Shown here piece after piece: positions 45,388 to 52,001 of a stretch of DNA of 64,000 nt. The position numbers were made by a program, and so were the translations under genes. Source of the DNA: an uncultured Chloroflexia bacterium (lineage in GTDB: Bacteria > Chloroflexota > Limnocylindria > Limnocylindrales > CSP1-4); NCBI GenBank assembly GCA_963707215.1, contig CAVPPB010000002.1:384001-448000 (forward strand), written 5' to 3'. Numbering within the stretch: position 1 is the first letter of the stretch; every line of letters begins with the position of its first letter. Below the pieces are notes generated by a model. It did no database searches, was not told the origin of the DNA, and was given only the letters and a program-made list of their open reading frames with translations.

Positions 45388-48054
45388 GTGTTCGAGCTGC
45401 TTGGTCGCCTCGTCGTTCGCCTCCGCCTCCCCATCGTCGTCGCCTGGCTGGTCGCTGCCGCGATCCTCTTCTTCGCCCCGTCGCTGCAGGACGTCGGCAC
45501 GGCCGACGAGTCCAGCTTCCTGCCGCGCGACGTCGGATCGGTCGCGGCCCGTGAGCTGCTGGCCAGGGGCTTTCCGGAGGACGACGCGGTCGGCACGGCG
45601 ACCCTGGTCCTCGTCCGCGAGCCCGGCCCCCTGACCGACGCCGATCGTGCCTACCTCGACGAGCTGGCGGCGTGGCTGACCGACCCCGCTTCGGACCCGG
45701 CCCTGGATGGCGCCGTCAAGATGGTCGTGACGGCCGCGACCCGGCCGGAACGCGCGGCGCTCCTGAGGAGCGAGGACGGCACGACCGAGATCGCGACGAT
45801 CGAGCTGACCGTGCCGGCGTTCCAGGAGCGCGCCAACGAGGTGGTCGCGGCGCTGAGAGCGCGGATCGCCGGGACGGCCCCCGACGGCCTGCGCGTCCAC
45901 GTCACCGGTCAGGCCGCCATCGGCGCCGACTACCTCCGGGCCATCGTCGACGGGACCGACCGGACGACGGTCGTGACGATCGCCCTGGTCATCGTCATCC
46001 TGCTGGCGATCTACCGGGCTCCGCTCGCCGCCCTGGTACCGCTCCTGACGATCGGCGCCGCCTTCCTCGTCGCCCGTGGGCTCCTCGGGTGGCTGGCCCA
46101 GGCCGGCTGGTCGCTGAGCACCCTGATCGACTCCTTCGTCGTCGTCCTCGTCTTCGGCGTCGGAACCGACTACACCATCTTCCTCATCAGCCGCTACCGC
46201 GAGGAGCTGGGCCGGGTCGGCGCAGGTTCGCGGGACGCGGCGGGCCGAGGGATCGCCGCCCGGGTGACCGTGACCCGGATCGGTGCCGTGATCACCGCCT
46301 CCGCGGCCACCGTGGTCGTCGGTCTCAGCGCCATGGTCATCGCCCGGTTCGGGATGATCCAGACGACCGGCCCCGCACTGGCCATCGCTATCGTCGTGGC
46401 CCTGGCGGCGGGCCTGACCTTGGCGCCGGCGCTGCTCGTCCTCTTCGGGCCGGCGCTGTTCTGGCCACGTCACCCCAGGCCCGTCGGCCAGGAGACGGGT
46501 GCCGGCGTCTGGGACCGCGTGGCTGCCGGCATCGTCCGTCGGCCGCTGGTCGTCTCCCTGGTCGTCATCGCCGCCATGGCCCTGCCGATCCTGCTCATCC
46601 CCGGCGCCCGGACCGACTTCGACACGCTGGCCGAGCTGCCGGCCGAGTCGGACGCCCGGATGGGCTTCGACGTCGTGGCCGACCACATGGACAAGGGGCG
46701 GCTCATGCCGATCATCGTCGCCATTCGGACGCCGGCGACCGACCTGACCTCGCCCGACGGCCTGACCGCGATCGCGGCCCTCGGCGATCGCCTGGCCGCG
46801 GTAGACGGCGTGGATTCGGTCCGCAGCCTCGTCAGCCCGACCGGTGAGGGCACCCCGGACGAGATGCGGATCTCGCCGCGCCTGCTCGAGCTGGCCGATG
46901 GGCTCGAGCGCCTGGGGGCTGGTCCAGCGGCGGTCCAGCTCGCCCTGGCCGATCCCGGCGCCGTGGCCGGACTGCGCACGGGACTGGGCTGGCTGGAGGC
47001 CAGGGCCGATGACGTGCCCGCGTTCCGTGCGCTGCCCGGGGCCGGCTCGCTCCGTGCCGACCTCGTGACCCTGACCGCCGCGATGGAGCGACTAGCGGCC
47101 GCCGACGACCCGGCGACGGCTGCCGCCCTGGCCGGCGAGGCGTCCCAGGCCGCCGGGCGGGCTGCAGCGGCCCTCCGCTCGGCTGGCGTGGAGCTGGCCG
47201 GCGATCCCCGCCGCGACCTCTACCTCCCCGATGTCTCGGGGGGCGACGCCGGGGAAGAGCTCGACCGCCTCGTCGGCGAGTTCGTCGGTCCGGACGGGTC
47301 GGTCGGGCGGATCTACGTCGTCGCCGCAGACGACCCCTACTCGACGGTCGCCTTCGAGACGGTCGACCGGCTGCGCGACGCCGTGAGCGGGCAGATCGAG
47401 GGTATGCCCGAGGAGACGACCGTGCTGGTCGGCGGCTCGACCGCCGAGTTCACCGACATTCGGACGACGATGGACGGCGACTTCCGCTCGGTGGCCGTGG
47501 TCACGGTCATCGGCGTCCTGCTCGTCCTTGTCGTGCTCCTGCGGAGCCTGGTGGCCCCGATCTTCCTGGTCGCCACGGTCCTGCTGTCCTACGGCACGAC
47601 CCTCCACGTCGCTGGCGGCCTGTTCGAGGGCGTGCTGGGTCATGGCGGCATGAACTACTTCCTGCCCCTGCTCGTCTTCGTCCTCCTGGTCGCCCTCGGC
47701 TCGGACTACAACATCTTCGTGGTCAGCCGCATCCGCGAAGAGAGCGCCCACCGGCCCATCCGCGACGGCATCCGGGTGGGTGCGGCCCGGACCGGCACGG
47801 TCATCACCTCGGCCGGGATCATCCTGGCCGGGACCTTCGCGGCCCTGATGACGGCGCCCCTGGAGCTGCTCTTCCAGGTGGGCGCGGCAGTCGCCCTCGG
47901 CGTCCTGCTCGACACCTTCGTCGTCCGCAGTCTCCTCGTGCCGGCCCTGATCGCGGTCTTCGGGGACCTGTCCTGGTGGCCCTCCGGATGGCATCGCCGG
48001 CGGCTCCCGCGCGGACGTCGTGCCGAGCTCTCGTCGGCGGGCCGGGGCCCCTGA
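45388..48054 (+). CDS. MMPL family (RND) transporter
   Basis: [18 protein letters not shown] and [17 protein letters not shown] repeats; 888 aa. Confidence 0.92.
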
Positions 48055-48201: not shown

Positions 48202-48777
48202 GTGTTCATCCTCTATGCGCTCCTGGTCGGGCTCGTCGTCGGAGCGCTGACGGGGGGCCGACCGGCCCGCCTCGGCTCGCTGGAGATCCGCTGGCCATGG
48301 GTCATCGCCGGCGGACTCGCCGCCCAGCTGATCCTCTTCTCCGAGCCCGTGACCCGGGTCGTGGGCGACGCCGGGCCGCCCCTCTACATCCTCTCGACGC
48401 TGGCGGTCCTTGCTGCCGTCAGCGTCAACCGGCGGATCCCGGGCATCCCCCTGGTGATCGCCGGTGCCGTTTCGAACATGACCGCCATCGTCGCCAACGG
48501 CGGGTACATGCCGACCACGCCTGAGGCCCTGGCGGCCCTCGGCAAGCTGCCTCCGGAGACCTACTCGAACAGCTCGGTGCCGATCTCGCCGATGCTCTGG
48601 CCGCTGACCGACATCTTCGCCATGCCGGCCTGGCTGCCCTTCGCCAACGTCTTCAGCATCGGCGACGTGCTGATCGGGCTCGGCATCGCGATCGCCGTGG
48701 TCGCCACGATGCGCCGGCCGGACGCCGATCCGGTGCCGCCCGGGGCGGCGGCCCCTCCGGGGGTCCTCGTCCCCTAG
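48202..48777 (+). CDS. DUF5317-family membrane protein; putative LspA-like aspartic peptidase
   Basis: RBS AAGGAG then GTG 48202; GG.P.RL..L..RW, N..ANGGYMP, LTDIF, VFSIGDVLI. Family recognised by motif; peptidase role is inference. Confidence 0.75.
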   Translation: MFILYALLVGLVVGALTGGRPARLGSLEIRWPWVIAGGLAAQLILFSEPVTRVVGDAGPPLYILSTLAVLAAVSVNRRIPGIPLVIAGAVSNMTAIVANGGYMPTTPEALAALGKLPPETYSNSSVPISPMLWPLTDIFAMPAWLPFANVFSIGDVLIGLGIAIAVVATMRRPDADPVPPGAAAPPGVLVP

Positions 48778-48930
48778 GGGCACCGACCGACCCTCCCTCG
48801 AGCGGTCGTGGCGCCCCGGTGCACCGGCGAATCGGATCGGGCCCCCCGGTACCCATGAGCCAGTGGCCGCGATCCGGCCGTCACGTAGCGGTCGCCCCCG
48901 AGGGCGACGTCCGCCTTCCGCCGCAAGGCC

Positions 48931-49011
48931 GTCCAGGGCAAACCCGTCGCGAGGCGGGGACGCAAAGCCAGGGATCTTCAAGGACCAACGAAGACCGCCC
49001 GGTTGCCGGAC
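48931..49011 (+). promoter_or_regulatory. Cyclic di-GMP-I (GEMM) riboswitch
   Basis: GTCC-AGGGCAAACCCGTC-GCGA-GGCGGGGACGCAAAGCC...GGTTGCC-GGAC shows GEMM core motifs, a GNRA-capped P2, P3 TCTTC/GAAGA and P1 GTCC/GGAC. Confidence 0.9.
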
Positions 49012-49048
49012 CTACGGTGAGGTCTCGGGGAACGAGAGGTACAGACAC

Positions 49049-49138
49049 GTGAAGGCGAACCTGGCGCGCTTCACCACGGCCGTCGCGCTCCTGGCGTCGA
49101 TGGCCCTCACCCTTGGCGCGGGGATGCGCTGGTGGTAG
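49049..49138 (+). CDS. 29-aa signal-peptide-like micro-protein MKANLARFTTAVALLASMALTLGAGMRWW
   Basis: RBS GAGAGG about 9 nt before GTG; directly under the riboswitch; n-region/h-region layout. Confidence 0.7.
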   Translation: MKANLARFTTAVALLASMALTLGAGMRWW

Positions 49139-49170
49139 CTCCCTAGACGGGAACGACAAGGGAGACGACC

Positions 49171-49245
49171 ATGGACACGCTGAACATCCCCCTCGAGGAT
49201 CGGGTGCCGGCCGTTGGTCCGATGGCCGGTCATCGGTGGAGCTGA
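49171..49245 (+). CDS. 24-aa micro-protein MDTLNIPLEDRVPAVGPMAGHRWS
   Basis: RBS AAGGGAG 6 nt before ATG; C-terminus AGHRWS mirrors AGMRWW of the upstream peptide; absent from the ORF track. Confidence 0.55.
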   Translation: MDTLNIPLEDRVPAVGPMAGHRWS

Positions 49246-49278
49246 TCGCGACGACCGGTCGCGGCGGCCCGCATCGAG

Positions 49279-49430: not shown

Positions 49431-52001
49431 GTGCCTGTGACCCCGAACCGGGTCATCCGAGCGCGCGCGATCGGGCTGTCCGTCGTCCTGGCTCGCCGCC
49501 CCAGGCTCGAGCCGTCGCAACGCGTCTGGCTGCTGACCATCGGCCTGGCCGTAGCGGCGACGCTCGTGCTCGCGCTGTCCGGCGGCTTCCTGTCCGGACG
49601 GGCGACGTCGGCGATCCCCTGGCCGCTCATCGCCCTGGGGATGTACCTGGCCGAGGTCAAGGTCGTCGTCGTCCACTTCCGTCGCGAGAGCCACTCCTTC
49701 TCGCTGAGCGAGATCCCGGCCGTCATCGGACTCTTCCTCCTGAGCCCCATGGACTACGTGCTGGCGGCGACGATCGGACCGACCCTGGCCTTCGTCTACC
49801 CGGCCCGTCAGCCCTTCATCAAGGCGGCCTTCAACGCCGTCAACTACCTTCTCATCGCCTCGGTCTCGCTGGTCACCTTCCAGATCCTGGCGCCCGGCGG
49901 CGTCGTCGGCCAGCCGGGCGCCCAGGCCTGGCTGGCGGCCTTCGTGGCGATGCTCGTCTCCACGGTCATCAGCAGCCTGACCATCGCCTCGGTCATCACC
50001 CTGTCGGGCGGGGCGCCGCAGTTCCAGAAGATGCCGGAGATGCTCCAGTTCGGCGGTCTCGTGGCGCTCGCCAACACCAGCATCGGTCTCCTTGCCCTCG
50101 CGGTCGTCAGCGTCGACCCGGCCGGCATCTGGCTCCTGATCGTGCCCATCGCCGCGGTCTTCCTTGCCTACCGGGCCTACGTCTCGGAGCGTGAGAAGAA
50201 GGAACGCCTGGAGCTGCTCTACCAGTCGAGCCGCATCCTCCAGCACACGCCCGAGCTCGACGCGGCGCTGATCGCCTTGCTCGACCACGCCCGCGACATG
50301 TTCCGGTCCGAGCGGGTCGACTGCCGTCTCGTGCCGGCGGCCGGGGGGCCCGTCCTGCTGACCCGCTCGCTGCTCGATGTCGAGCCGATCGTCATGGAGG
50401 CCCAGCCCGAGGGTCCGGACGACGAGCTCTCGGCCGTGCTCCAGCAGCGGAGCGACGCCTTCATCTACCGGCCGGAGGCACCGGGCTCCGGGATCCGCCA
50501 GGCGATGGTCGCTCCGCTGGCCGGCGAGGACCGGCCGATCGGCCACCTCATCGTCGCCAACCGGCTGGGGGAGGCCTCCTCCTACGGGGTCGACGACCTT
50601 CGCCTCCTCGAGACGCTCGCCGGGCAGGTGGCCGTCGCCCTCCAGAACGGCCAGCTGGAGCAGTCACTCACGGAGCTGTCCCGGCTGAAGGACGAGCTCC
50701 GTCACCAGGCCTATCACGACTCCCTGACAAGGCTGGGCAACCGGGTCCTCTTCGCCGAGGCCGTCGAACAGAGTCTGGCCGTGGCCTCGGACCTGGAGAC
50801 CGTCGTCCTGTTCCTGGACCTCGACGACTTCAAGATGGTCAACGACACGATGGGTCATGCCGTCGGGGACCGGCTCCTGGGCGTCGTCGCCGAGCGCATC
50901 TCCCGGAGCGTCCGCGAGACCGATGTGGCGGCCCGCCTGGGTGGCGACGAGTTCGCGGTCCTGGTCCACGACCAGCCCGATCTCCGGGTCGCACTGGCCC
51001 TGGCCGGTCGGCTCCGCGAGGAGCTCCATCGTCCCGTCCGCCTGGGTGGCAGCGAGACGGTGGTCGACGTCAGCATCGGGATCGCCGCCGCCTCGAAGGG
51101 CGTCGGCGCCGACGAGCTGCTCCGCAACGCGGACATCGCGATGTACAAGGCCAAGACCGATGGCAAGGGCCGGGTGGCGCTCTTCGACCCGACGATCCAT
51201 GCCGCCATCGTCGCCCGCCATGCCCTCGGGACGGACCTGACCCGGGGGCTCCTGCAGAACCAGTTCGAGCTCTACTACCAGCCGATCGTCGTGCTCGGGA
51301 CGGGATCGATCTCGGGCTACGAGGCGCTGCTGCGCTGGCATCACCCGCAGCGCGGTCTGATCACCCCCGACGACTTCATCCGGGTGGCCGAGGAGACGGG
51401 CTCCATCGTCGACATCGGGGCCTGGGTCCTCCGGGAGGCCTGTGGGCAGGCCACGGCCTGGTCGGCCCTGCCCGGCATGGACGATCGGCTCTCGATCAGC
51501 GTCAACGTCTCGCCGCGCCAGCTCCAGGACCCGGAGTTCGTGGACCTTGTCCTGGGAGTGCTCCGCGAGACCAGCCTTCCGCCCGAGCGGCTCGTCCTCG
51601 AAGTGACCGAGACGGCGATGTTCCAGGACCCGGTCACCGTCGGCGCGAAGCTCGAGGCGCTCCGCGAGGTGGGTGTGCGGGTCGCCCTGGACGACTTCGG
51701 CACCGGCTATGCATCGCTCAGCCATCTCCGCCGGTTCCCGGTCGACATCCTCAAGATCGCCCGCGACTTCGTCGTCGACGCCGACGCCGAAGACGACGCC
51801 TGGGCCTTCGCGGCGGCGATCGTCGCACTGGCCCGGACCCTCCAGCTCCAGGTCGTGGCGGAGGGCATCGAGCAGTCGCGCCAGGTCGAGCGGCTGCGCG
51901 GCCTCGGGTGCCAGCTGGGCCAGGGCTACTTCCTCGCCCGCCCCGCTCCGGCGGCGGTCATCGATGCTTCCATCGGCGCCGTCGGCTCGGCGACGGCCTG
52001 A
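49431..52001 (+). CDS. Membrane (~7 TM) sensor - GAF - GGDEF - EAL diguanylate cyclase/phosphodiesterase
   Basis: Hydrophobic N-terminal ~245 aa; GAF-like segment; HDSLTRLGNR, RETD I-site, RLGGDEF, EALLRW, DDFGTGY, AEGIE. Confidence 0.93.
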   Translation: MPVTPNRVIRARAIGLSVVLARRPRLEPSQRVWLLTIGLAVAATLVLALSGGFLSGRATSAIPWPLIALGMYLAEVKVVVVHFRRESHSFSLSEIPAVIGLFLLSPMDYVLAATIGPTLAFVYPARQPFIKAAFNAVNYLLIASVSLVTFQILAPGGVVGQPGAQAWLAAFVAMLVSTVISSLTIASVITLSGGAPQFQKMPEMLQFGGLVALANTSIGLLALAVVSVDPAGIWLLIVPIAAVFLAYRAYVSEREKKERLELLYQSSRILQHTPELDAALIALLDHARDMFRSERVDCRLVPAAGGPVLLTRSLLDVEPIVMEAQPEGPDDELSAVLQQRSDAFIYRPEAPGSGIRQAMVAPLAGEDRPIGHLIVANRLGEASSYGVDDLRLLETLAGQVAVALQNGQLEQSLTELSRLKDELRHQAYHDSLTRLGNRVLFAEAVEQSLAVASDLETVVLFLDLDDFKMVNDTMGHAVGDRLLGVVAERISRSVRETDVAARLGGDEFAVLVHDQPDLRVALALAGRLREELHRPVRLGGSETVVDVSIGIAAASKGVGADELLRNADIAMYKAKTDGKGRVALFDPTIHAAIVARHALGTDLTRGLLQNQFELYYQPIVVLGTGSISGYEALLRWHHPQRGLITPDDFIRVAEETGSIVDIGAWVLREACGQATAWSALPGMDDRLSISVNVSPRQLQDPEFVDLVLGVLRETSLPPERLVLEVTETAMFQDPVTVGAKLEALREVGVRVALDDFGTGYASLSHLRRFPVDILKIARDFVVDADAEDDAWAFAAAIVALARTLQLQVVAEGIEQSRQVERLRGLGCQLGQGYFLARPAPAAVIDASIGAVGSATA

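Follow-up and report, generated by a model that had tools for sequence, protein, structure and literature searches.

Directly behind a riboswitch aptamer of the cyclic dimeric guanosine monophosphate (c-di-GMP)-I-GGC type, the 64,000-nucleotide stretch of contig CAVPPB010000002.1 analysed here (the window; the genome containing it is designated G000) carries a 29-codon open reading frame (ORF), termed sORF1. A second micro-ORF, sORF2, and a GC-rich stem-loop follow on the same strand. Judged by its conservation and codon pattern among relatives, sORF1 looks like a real small-protein gene and not like a lipoprotein-type signal peptide. The elements of this short segment are listed below.

48928..49011, + strand: c-di-GMP-I-GGC aptamer (RF03167); Rfam 65.6 bits against a gathering score of 59, E 2.9e-13, full model 1-80
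49034..49039, + strand: GAGAGG, Shine-Dalgarno (SD)-like element 9 nt before the sORF1 GTG, in the 3' arm of a small hairpin
49049..49138, + strand: sORF1, 29-aa microprotein MKANLARFTTAVALLASMALTLGAGMRWW, GTG start and TAG stop ending at 49138; from the sequence and its relatives
49049..49074, + strand: predicted start-codon hairpin GUGAAGGCG-AACCUGG-CGC(G)CUUCAC; in minimum free energy folds the GTG pairs with codons 8-9
49160..49165, + strand: GGGAGA, SD-like element 5 nt before the sORF2 ATG; from the sequence
49171..49245, + strand: sORF2, 24-aa hydrophilic micro-ORF MDTLNIPLEDRVPAVGPMAGHRWS with ATG start and the end A-G-H-R-W-S; from the ORF list
49241..49268, + strand: GC-rich stem-loop (RNAfold), terminator-like and without a U tract, straddling the sORF2 stop

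A sequence-only reading of this DNA had described a GAGAGG ribosome-binding site and a GTG codon opening a 29-residue ORF, the first under a GEMM-type riboswitch, with a basic n-region and a hydrophobic h-region; these elements are all found in the sequence. The predicted peptide consists of a basic N-terminus (K2 and R7), ~17 hydrophobic or small residues and a juxtamembrane A-G-x-[RK]-W motif, with a small-residue face on the putative helix formed by A16, S17, A19, G23, A24 and G25. In the ORF list (table 11), a 91-aa ORF from an upstream GTG at 48863 runs in the same frame and crosses the riboswitch. The list holds 62 ORFs of at least 20 aa in 6 kb, and in such DNA of ~70% GC a 29-codon ORF is unremarkable, so the case for sORF1 above chance rests on its conservation among relatives. 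Scans of both peptides against Pfam and NCBIfam gave 0 families at E<=10, a search of the ESM Atlas with the homolog P0004 as query gave only unnamed clusters with scores below 0.9, and a sigma-70 promoter scan gave nothing upstream. Assignment to the Flp/Fap pilins (PF04964), judged by a G/xxxxEY processing motif together with a Pfam match, was rejected, as sORF1 matches no Pfam family at E<=10 and is without the GLAEYALIL of the Flp-like genes of G000 itself.

Conservation and spread of sORF1

A profile of 10 sORF1 peptides (alignment A1) was used for a six-frame search over 301 genomes of class Limnocylindria, the families of which are denoted f1 to f5. At E<=0.01 it matched 48 genomes, namely 26 of 91 in f1 in addition to G000, 19 of 103 in f4 and, weakly, 2 of 92 in f3, with none in f2 (0/12) or f5 (0/2). 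The DNA similarity with relatives runs from the aptamer through sORF1, and other genera have recognisable versions of the peptide. At the best 30 loci, which belong to families f1 and f4, the ORF is intact throughout: no frameshift and no indel before the Trp codon was found in 30/30, and the length differs only after the Trp. Among 28 distinct aligned peptides, M1, L5, A19, A24, G25 and W28 are invariant, position 27 is Arg or Lys, and K2, R7, A16 and L20 are kept in at least 90%. Most positions of the h-region vary, unlike the C-terminal A-G-x-[RK]-W, which is invariant or nearly so; the GxRW ending is therefore better conserved than the h-region, a comparison on which the sequence-only reading had staked its proposal.

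The conserved residues are encoded by varying codons. Across 21 sequences of f1, four synonymous codons are used for A24, and three each for A19, L20 and G25. Over codons 9-28, these sequences have a proportion of synonymous differences (pS) of 0.506, a proportion of nonsynonymous differences (pN) of 0.220 and a nonsynonymous-to-synonymous rate ratio (dN/dS) of 0.31, and nine sequences of f4 have a dN/dS of 0.38. The ratio, which had been put forward as a check on the ORF, is thus in favor of a coding sequence.

Against 1.84 billion (1.84e9) metagenome cluster representatives, the sORF1 profile matched 145 clusters at E<=1e-3 and 29 at E<=1e-10. Three of the 145 are repeat-protein false positives and were dropped, which leaves 142 plausible clusters, 134 of them with the motif. 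The residue before the motif Gly is Ala in 131 of these 134 representatives, the basic residue is Arg in 94 and Lys in 40, and the Trp is followed by 0-3 residues in 99. As suspected from the sequence, the gene is mostly miscalled by gene callers: the called length is approximately right for 27 of the 142 representatives, whereas in 83 the call reaches back across the riboswitch. A subfamily (P0002, P0004, P0020, P0078, P0086 and L002) has 7-15 extra residues after the Trp, often with a ...F(L)GF end. In addition, the metagenome proteins P0018 (70 aa) and P0019 (61 aa) read sORF1 and sORF2 in one frame, be it through a natural fusion of the two or through a frameshift or faulty assembly. A pattern scan with one genome per species found 60 loci, almost all in metagenome-assembled genomes of Chloroflexota/Candidatus Limnocylindria, including 'Chloroflexi bacterium CSP1-4'. 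In a phylum-wide sample, sORF1 matches at E<=1e-3 occur in 8 of 401 genomes, 7 of which are in Limnocylindria.

The riboswitch leader and the second micro-ORF

RF03167 is the sole Rfam match in the window, and it recurs directly upstream of sORF1 in 21/21 related loci scanned (20/20 in addition to L064), ending ~35-45 nt before the start; one of the 20 scanned aptamers scores 57.2 bits, below the RF03167 cut-off. Three loci (L053, L058 and L059) carry a tandem pair of riboswitch-sORF1 modules, about 490-590 nt apart. The reverse link is weaker. Among 40 RF03167 copies inspected in f1, 11 are followed by the sORFs, and others precede secreted or membrane proteins or a different family of hydrophobic micro-ORFs of 35-36 aa. 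Targets behind the aptamer in relatives (L009, L013, L018, L020, L049, L050 and others) include TadE-like, subtilase S8, beta-helix/NosD and alginate-lyase-like proteins, proteins with CBM_4_9 (carbohydrate-binding) or fn3/purple-acid-phosphatase-N domains, and an unnamed family starting M(S)FWDGTHW. A second RF03167 copy in G000 (C2:474223-474311, minus strand) precedes a protein starting MSYWDGTHW. The 35-36-aa micro-ORFs, such as MKPAGFAADRATPLAVAVRIAVILFVALAGVASAHP, are found 11-17 nt after the aptamers of L021, L025, L026, L027, L028 and L033, that is, behind 6 of the 40 copies. They combine a basic start, a hydrophobic stretch and an A-x-A-like ...G[VSA]ASA end with 1-2 further residues, and look like signal peptides with almost nothing behind; the three scanned against Pfam (L021, L026 and L027) matched no family. 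In one family, envelope and secreted proteins make up the c-di-GMP-I-GGC regulon together with micro-ORFs of two kinds.

An SD-like element lies 4-9 nt before the sORF1 start in 29/29 loci folded. In partition-function folds of these loci, the mean unpaired probability is 0.27-0.28 for the SD and 0.20-0.22 for the start codon, both being mostly paired. Within f1, the first eight sORF1 codons are nearly nucleotide-invariant, with a pS of 0.207 in codons 2-8 compared to 0.506 in codons 9-28 (21 sequences). In f4, single-sequence folds pair the SD with codons 8-10 instead. No covariation was detected for the start-codon hairpin, as none of the six pairs called by RNAalifold shows compensatory changes (0/6); the columns are invariant, and the predicted structure is accordingly read from this invariance. 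Since local helices formed with the first 8-10 codons take in both the SD and the start codon, gating by the aptamer is most likely exerted on translation initiation. Contigs from two metatranscriptome runs, each belonging to a separate study, align with 48911-49177 (7 differences, 1 gap) and, without any difference, with 48914-49068; both begin 14-17 nt before the aptamer. They hint weakly at expression and at a 5' end just before the aptamer, with DNA carry-over possible; the DNA runs X1 and X2 cover only short conserved parts of the stretch.

A counterpart of sORF2 is present in 24 of the 30 sORF1 loci. Its ATG lies from -10 to +7 nt relative to the sORF1 stop in 23 of these 24, and exactly 2 nt after it in 11. 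A start within a few nucleotides of the preceding stop is the arrangement expected for termination-reinitiation, and points to translational coupling of the two frames in relatives. The window is the exception, with sORF2 placed 32 nt downstream of sORF1 behind an SD of its own. The second micro-ORF has two forms, hydrophobic (e.g. MRRTIRSNAIRVLLALSALASSALVLEAGRRW) and hydrophilic, of 11-35 aa. In the hydrophilic form, only the C-terminal [AS]-G-[HQRK]-R-W with 0-2 following residues is kept, and its codons vary synonymously, with every one of the four Gly codons, both His codons (CAC and CAT) and six Ala/Ser codons in use. Alignment of the sORF1 profile with that of the transmembrane-type sORF2 by hhalign gave a probability of 94.6% and an E-value of 6.8e-8 over 26 columns, by which the hydrophobic sORF2 is a paralog of sORF1. 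Hairpins similar to the GC-rich stem-loop of the window follow the sORF2 stop in about a dozen related loci, as seen by eye and not counted systematically. With the stem-loop at the sORF2 stop, the unit looks self-contained.

Neighbouring genes and the proposed c-di-GMP module

Three genes of the window flank this unit.

45388..48054, + strand: MMPL-family transporter gene, 888 aa; 398 bits
48202..48777, + strand: DUF5317 membrane-protein gene; PF17248, 96.1 bits against a cut-off of 25, E 2.6e-27
49431..52001, + strand: membrane GAF-GGDEF-EAL protein, 856 aa; Pfam EAL 240.9 bits, GGDEF 144.2 bits, and GAF

The DUF5317 gene likely starts with the GTG at 48202, its longest ORF running from 48109. 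The protein has five hydrophobic segments, the invariant residues N76, N92, D137 and D155, and the motifs NGG.MP and FS.GD. Of the 30 sORF1 loci, 28 have a DUF5317 homolog immediately ahead of the riboswitch and in the same orientation. Inspection of the 856-aa protein shows intact GGDEF, EAL and DDFGTGYASL motifs. In 22 of the 30 loci, DUF5317 is preceded by the C-terminal EAL part of such a GGDEF-EAL gene; in 5, the window among them, the N-terminal part of one is found downstream. In 4/4 loci fetched in full (two per family), the upstream gene is a full-length ortholog of the GGDEF-EAL gene of the window, with an identity of 52-55% over ~780-836 residues. In most relatives it takes the position of the MMPL gene of the window, the locus of which appears rearranged such that the GGDEF-EAL gene is now downstream. 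The genes downstream of the module differ between loci, being GGDEF-EAL, ilvB-like or, in f4, infC-rpmI-rplT. In another class of Chloroflexota, genome G683 (L235, C92:13800-17300) has a sORF ending in AGTKWG (...LALALGAGTKWG), followed by a gene for an HD-GYP-type protein (444 aa, membrane, HD_5 123 bits) and then DUF5317. Together with the GGDEF-EAL neighbours in Limnocylindria, this arrangement means that the microproteins and DUF5317 recur beside two kinds of c-di-GMP-turnover enzyme.

DUF5317 is present in 117 of 401 Chloroflexota genomes, a tally that includes the unpublished genome G536. At locus L162 it is followed by a MASE9-GAF-HisKA kinase. Many matches in Limnocylindria sit in open frames of 600-760 aa; a third DUF5317 domain of G000, outside the window (C2:16292-18394, minus strand), forms the N-terminus of a ~700-aa open frame, the remainder of which looks like a multi-pass transporter, MFS-like by eye. 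G000 also has two further A-G-x-R-W paralogs outside the window. One of them, MKRIKLETVRVVLVLSALASMALALEAGRRWF (C2:342652-342747, minus strand), lies ~150 nt after the second DUF5317 gene and has no Rfam match or riboswitch, and the other, MMDRSRRWLPIRTALTLVALTAIALSLQAGMRWH (C2:331474-331572, plus strand), follows a gene ending in YHS/TRASH-like sequence. As relatives of DUF5317, signal peptidase II (Peptidase_A8) and prepilin peptidase (Peptidase_A24, GxGD) were rejected, with hhalign probabilities of 0.8% and 0.6%, respectively. The sole stretch aligned to the Peptidase_A24 proteins of relatives, in their catalytic GxGD region, sets LPF-ANVFSIGDVLIALGVAI against IPFGSGAFGLGDVKFLVGAGL over 20 columns and is not significant. 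A DUF5317 profile (alignment A4) had 0 matches among PDB sequences.

Altogether, the aptamer, the conservation of the ORF, its codon pattern, the shared motif, the paralogy and the synteny make it probable that the locus encodes a riboswitch-gated pair of microproteins. The pair would work alongside DUF5317 and a c-di-GMP enzyme in a module at the membrane, and would give feedback on the messenger. In such a module, sORF1 would be a real protein-coding gene and the first cistron of a self-contained unit of riboswitch, sORF1, sORF2 and stem-loop. Its translated product would be a single-pass membrane microprotein, predicted by the positive-inside rule to have its N-terminus inside and its C-terminus outside, and sORF2, which carries the same ending, would be made by coupled translation in the relatives. 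The peptides may act at the membrane with the adjacent DUF5317 protein and the membrane c-di-GMP-turnover enzyme, GGDEF-EAL here and HD-GYP elsewhere. Through the gating of translation, c-di-GMP or a related dinucleotide would then exert feedback control over its own signalling module.

Several observations weigh against this proposal. Translation of the sORFs is a prediction, and the RNA contigs are uninformative on ribosomes and might stem from carried-over DNA. Upon closure of the aptamer in the 29 folded loci, the SD became more open in five and less open in seven, showing no consistent ON/OFF direction; the switch is therefore read as translational, of either sign. The suppressed synonymous variation in codons 2-8 of sORF1 means that part of the conservation lies at the RNA level. 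The hydrophilic variants of sORF2, including that of the window, cannot span a membrane, so the shared motif does not have one simple role at the membrane surface. Moreover, the link between DUF5317 and the sORFs is frequent, not obligatory. Among 14 further DUF5317 loci in the class, six have sORFs of the family beside them and eight, which count against the link, do not; DUF5317 is present in 23/23 genomes of f1 and 16/16 of f4 sampled, sORF1 in only 26/91 and 19/103; and outside Limnocylindria a similar sORF lies within 1.5 kb in only 2 of 29 DUF5317 loci (G664 and G478).

The sequence-only reading had taken LGA/G for a lipobox with Gly in place of Cys, and had suggested that sORF1 may be a signal peptide with a pentapeptide as cargo; neither claim is supported by the comparison with relatives. 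Signal peptidase II (LspA), or signal peptidase I cutting after GAG, would in that case free a peptide of 4-5 residues, as might be suggested by the basic n-region with its ~17-residue hydrophobic stretch, the small residues G23-A24-G25, the 0-3 residues after the Trp in 99 of 134 representatives and a canonical LspA gene in G000. However, LspA acts only after Lgt has lipidated the lipobox Cys to diacylglyceryl-Cys, and a Cys occurs within the 10 residues ending at the Trp in 0 of the 134 representatives, position 25 being Gly in 28/28 aligned peptides. The short tails also leave essentially no mature protein after the site, the same ending is found on sORF2 peptides without any hydrophobic segment, a minority has 7-15 residues after the Trp, and the h-region keeps specific residues (A16, A19 and L20), unlike ordinary signal peptides. 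Lacking its defining Cys and built on a motif common to non-hydrophobic peptides, the lipobox reading fails, and we consider it very improbable; cleavage of sORF1 by some other protease is possible. DUF5317 itself might be an unrecognised intramembrane protease of the aspartyl type, or a peptide handler, with the A-G-x-R-W peptides as substrates and release of their C-terminal peptide under the riboswitch. The tight synteny (28/30 loci), the riboswitch-less pair of DUF5317 and sORF in G000, the invariant Asn and Asp residues, the motifs at the ends of hydrophobic segments and the coincidence of the best local alignment to Peptidase_A24 with exactly the GxGD region are consistent with this idea, as is the outward-facing position predicted by the positive-inside rule for both a DUF5317 loop and the sORF1 tail. 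The profile comparisons, by contrast, are not significant for either peptidase and gave no match among PDB sequences, the hydrophilic sORF2 peptides would lie at the wrong face of the membrane, and many DUF5317 genes have no adjacent sORF, all of which makes it unlikely. We are similarly doubtful of a scheme in which the dinucleotide-sensing riboswitch gates the release of a 4-5-residue G-x-R-W-x peptide by DUF5317, or the docking of the tail, as a signal tuning the neighbouring membrane-bound c-di-GMP phosphodiesterase/cyclase. If true, the DUF5317 route would amount to the earlier signal peptide with a peptide cargo, served by dedicated machinery instead of the lipoprotein pathway.

Other explanations dispense with a function of the peptides in signalling. 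As regulatory leader or arrest peptides, the sORFs would act through A-G-x-R-W in the ribosome tunnel and control downstream genes or the fate of the mRNA, the peptides themselves being functionless. Such a role would account for the hydrophilic sORF2, conserved only in its last ~7 residues over a length of 11-35 aa, for the closeness of the motif to the stop (0-3 residues in 99 of 134 representatives), and for the tight coupling of the two sORFs. Nevertheless, it is decidedly unlikely given that the downstream genes vary among loci, a GC-rich stem-loop follows sORF2 in many of them (by eye), selection extends over the whole hydrophobic helix of sORF1, far past the range of the tunnel, and both tandem modules and riboswitch-less paralogs exist. 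A membrane-damaging small toxin, of type I or holin-like, with its synthesis restrained by the riboswitch would likewise be short and hydrophobic with a basic end, and heavily structured initiation regions, as seen here at the start codon and SD with their mean unpaired probabilities of about 0.2-0.28, are typical of type I toxin mRNAs. We deem a toxin highly improbable: neither an antisense RNA nor any sign of an antitoxin was observed (no padloc search was made), two families keep the synteny with signalling genes, and the paired second peptide and the motif are foreign to known toxins. Finally, the open frame could be a non-coding by-product of a conserved RNA expression platform, to which the almost invariant first eight codons in f1 and the predicted start-codon hairpin would correspond. 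This explanation is barely credible in view of the abundant synonymous change with conserved amino acids in codons 9-28, the absence of indels before the Trp in 30/30 loci, the retention of the peptide in f4 with different N-terminal codons, and the mere six pairs without covariation called by RNAalifold.

Relation to known small proteins and riboswitches

Compared to bacterial lipoprotein signal peptides (L-[AS]-[GA]-C; Lgt, LspA and Lnt), sORF1 shares the basic n-region, the h-region and the small residues in L-G-A-G, but differs in the missing Cys near the site (0/134), in having essentially no mature part, and in a motif that non-hydrophobic peptides carry too. Small single-pass regulators of the MgrB, SafA, AcrZ and KdpF type have one helix and are encoded next to or together with their membrane-protein partners. 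They resemble sORF1 in a length of 20-50 aa, the single helix and the partner-adjacent genes; we know of no sequence relation between them and sORF1, nor of any among them that is riboswitch-controlled or paired with a second peptide sharing a motif.

The c-di-GMP-I-GGC variant was reportedly defined by Weinberg et al. in 2017 (PNAS), and we know of no description of its ligand or regulon. The leader of the window matches this variant above the gathering score, and the GGDEF-EAL/HD-GYP context would be consistent with a dinucleotide ligand here. In the accessible part of one report, c-di-GMP-I-GGC appears merely as an item in a list of Rfam classes (PMC12452182). A literature search found no mention of DUF5317, and nothing on Limnocylindria together with c-di-GMP. 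Three testable leads would follow from the locus: a regulon of the c-di-GMP-I-GGC variant, and with it the likely class of its ligand; a first functional setting of the widespread membrane protein DUF5317, as a putative partner of c-di-GMP enzymes and A-G-x-R-W microproteins; and a candidate family of at least 142 clusters, mostly mis-started through the riboswitch by gene callers.

The closest precedent is a set of small membrane proteins encoded behind c-di-GMP-I riboswitches in C. difficile (2026; CD1980.2 type), which, in the accessible part of the report, are 58-aa proteins with a predicted four-helix bundle and a C-terminal helix, encoded as single cistrons, linked to sporulation, regulated by transcription termination and described as having no homologs outside C. 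difficile (PMC13724677). As far as that part goes, both systems have a gene for a small hydrophobic protein as the direct cargo of a GEMM-I-type riboswitch, occur in multiple copies with riboswitch-less paralogs in the same genome, and are missed or miscalled by annotation (PMC13724677). Like the CD1980.2-type genes, sORF1 is a small ORF with a hydrophobic helix directly behind a c-di-GMP-I aptamer; the likeness is one of size, hydrophobicity and riboswitch context. Unlike the C. difficile family, sORF1 would form a 29-aa single helix and has a coupled second micro-ORF sharing the A-G-x-R-W ending, its control is probably translational, it is syntenic with DUF5317 and c-di-GMP enzymes, and its hosts are Chloroflexota (Limnocylindria). 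If translated, it would represent a second, independent case of a c-di-GMP-class riboswitch with a tiny membrane protein as its only cargo, built on a different architecture, two coupled micro-ORFs with a common C-terminal motif, in an uncultured phylum-level lineage.

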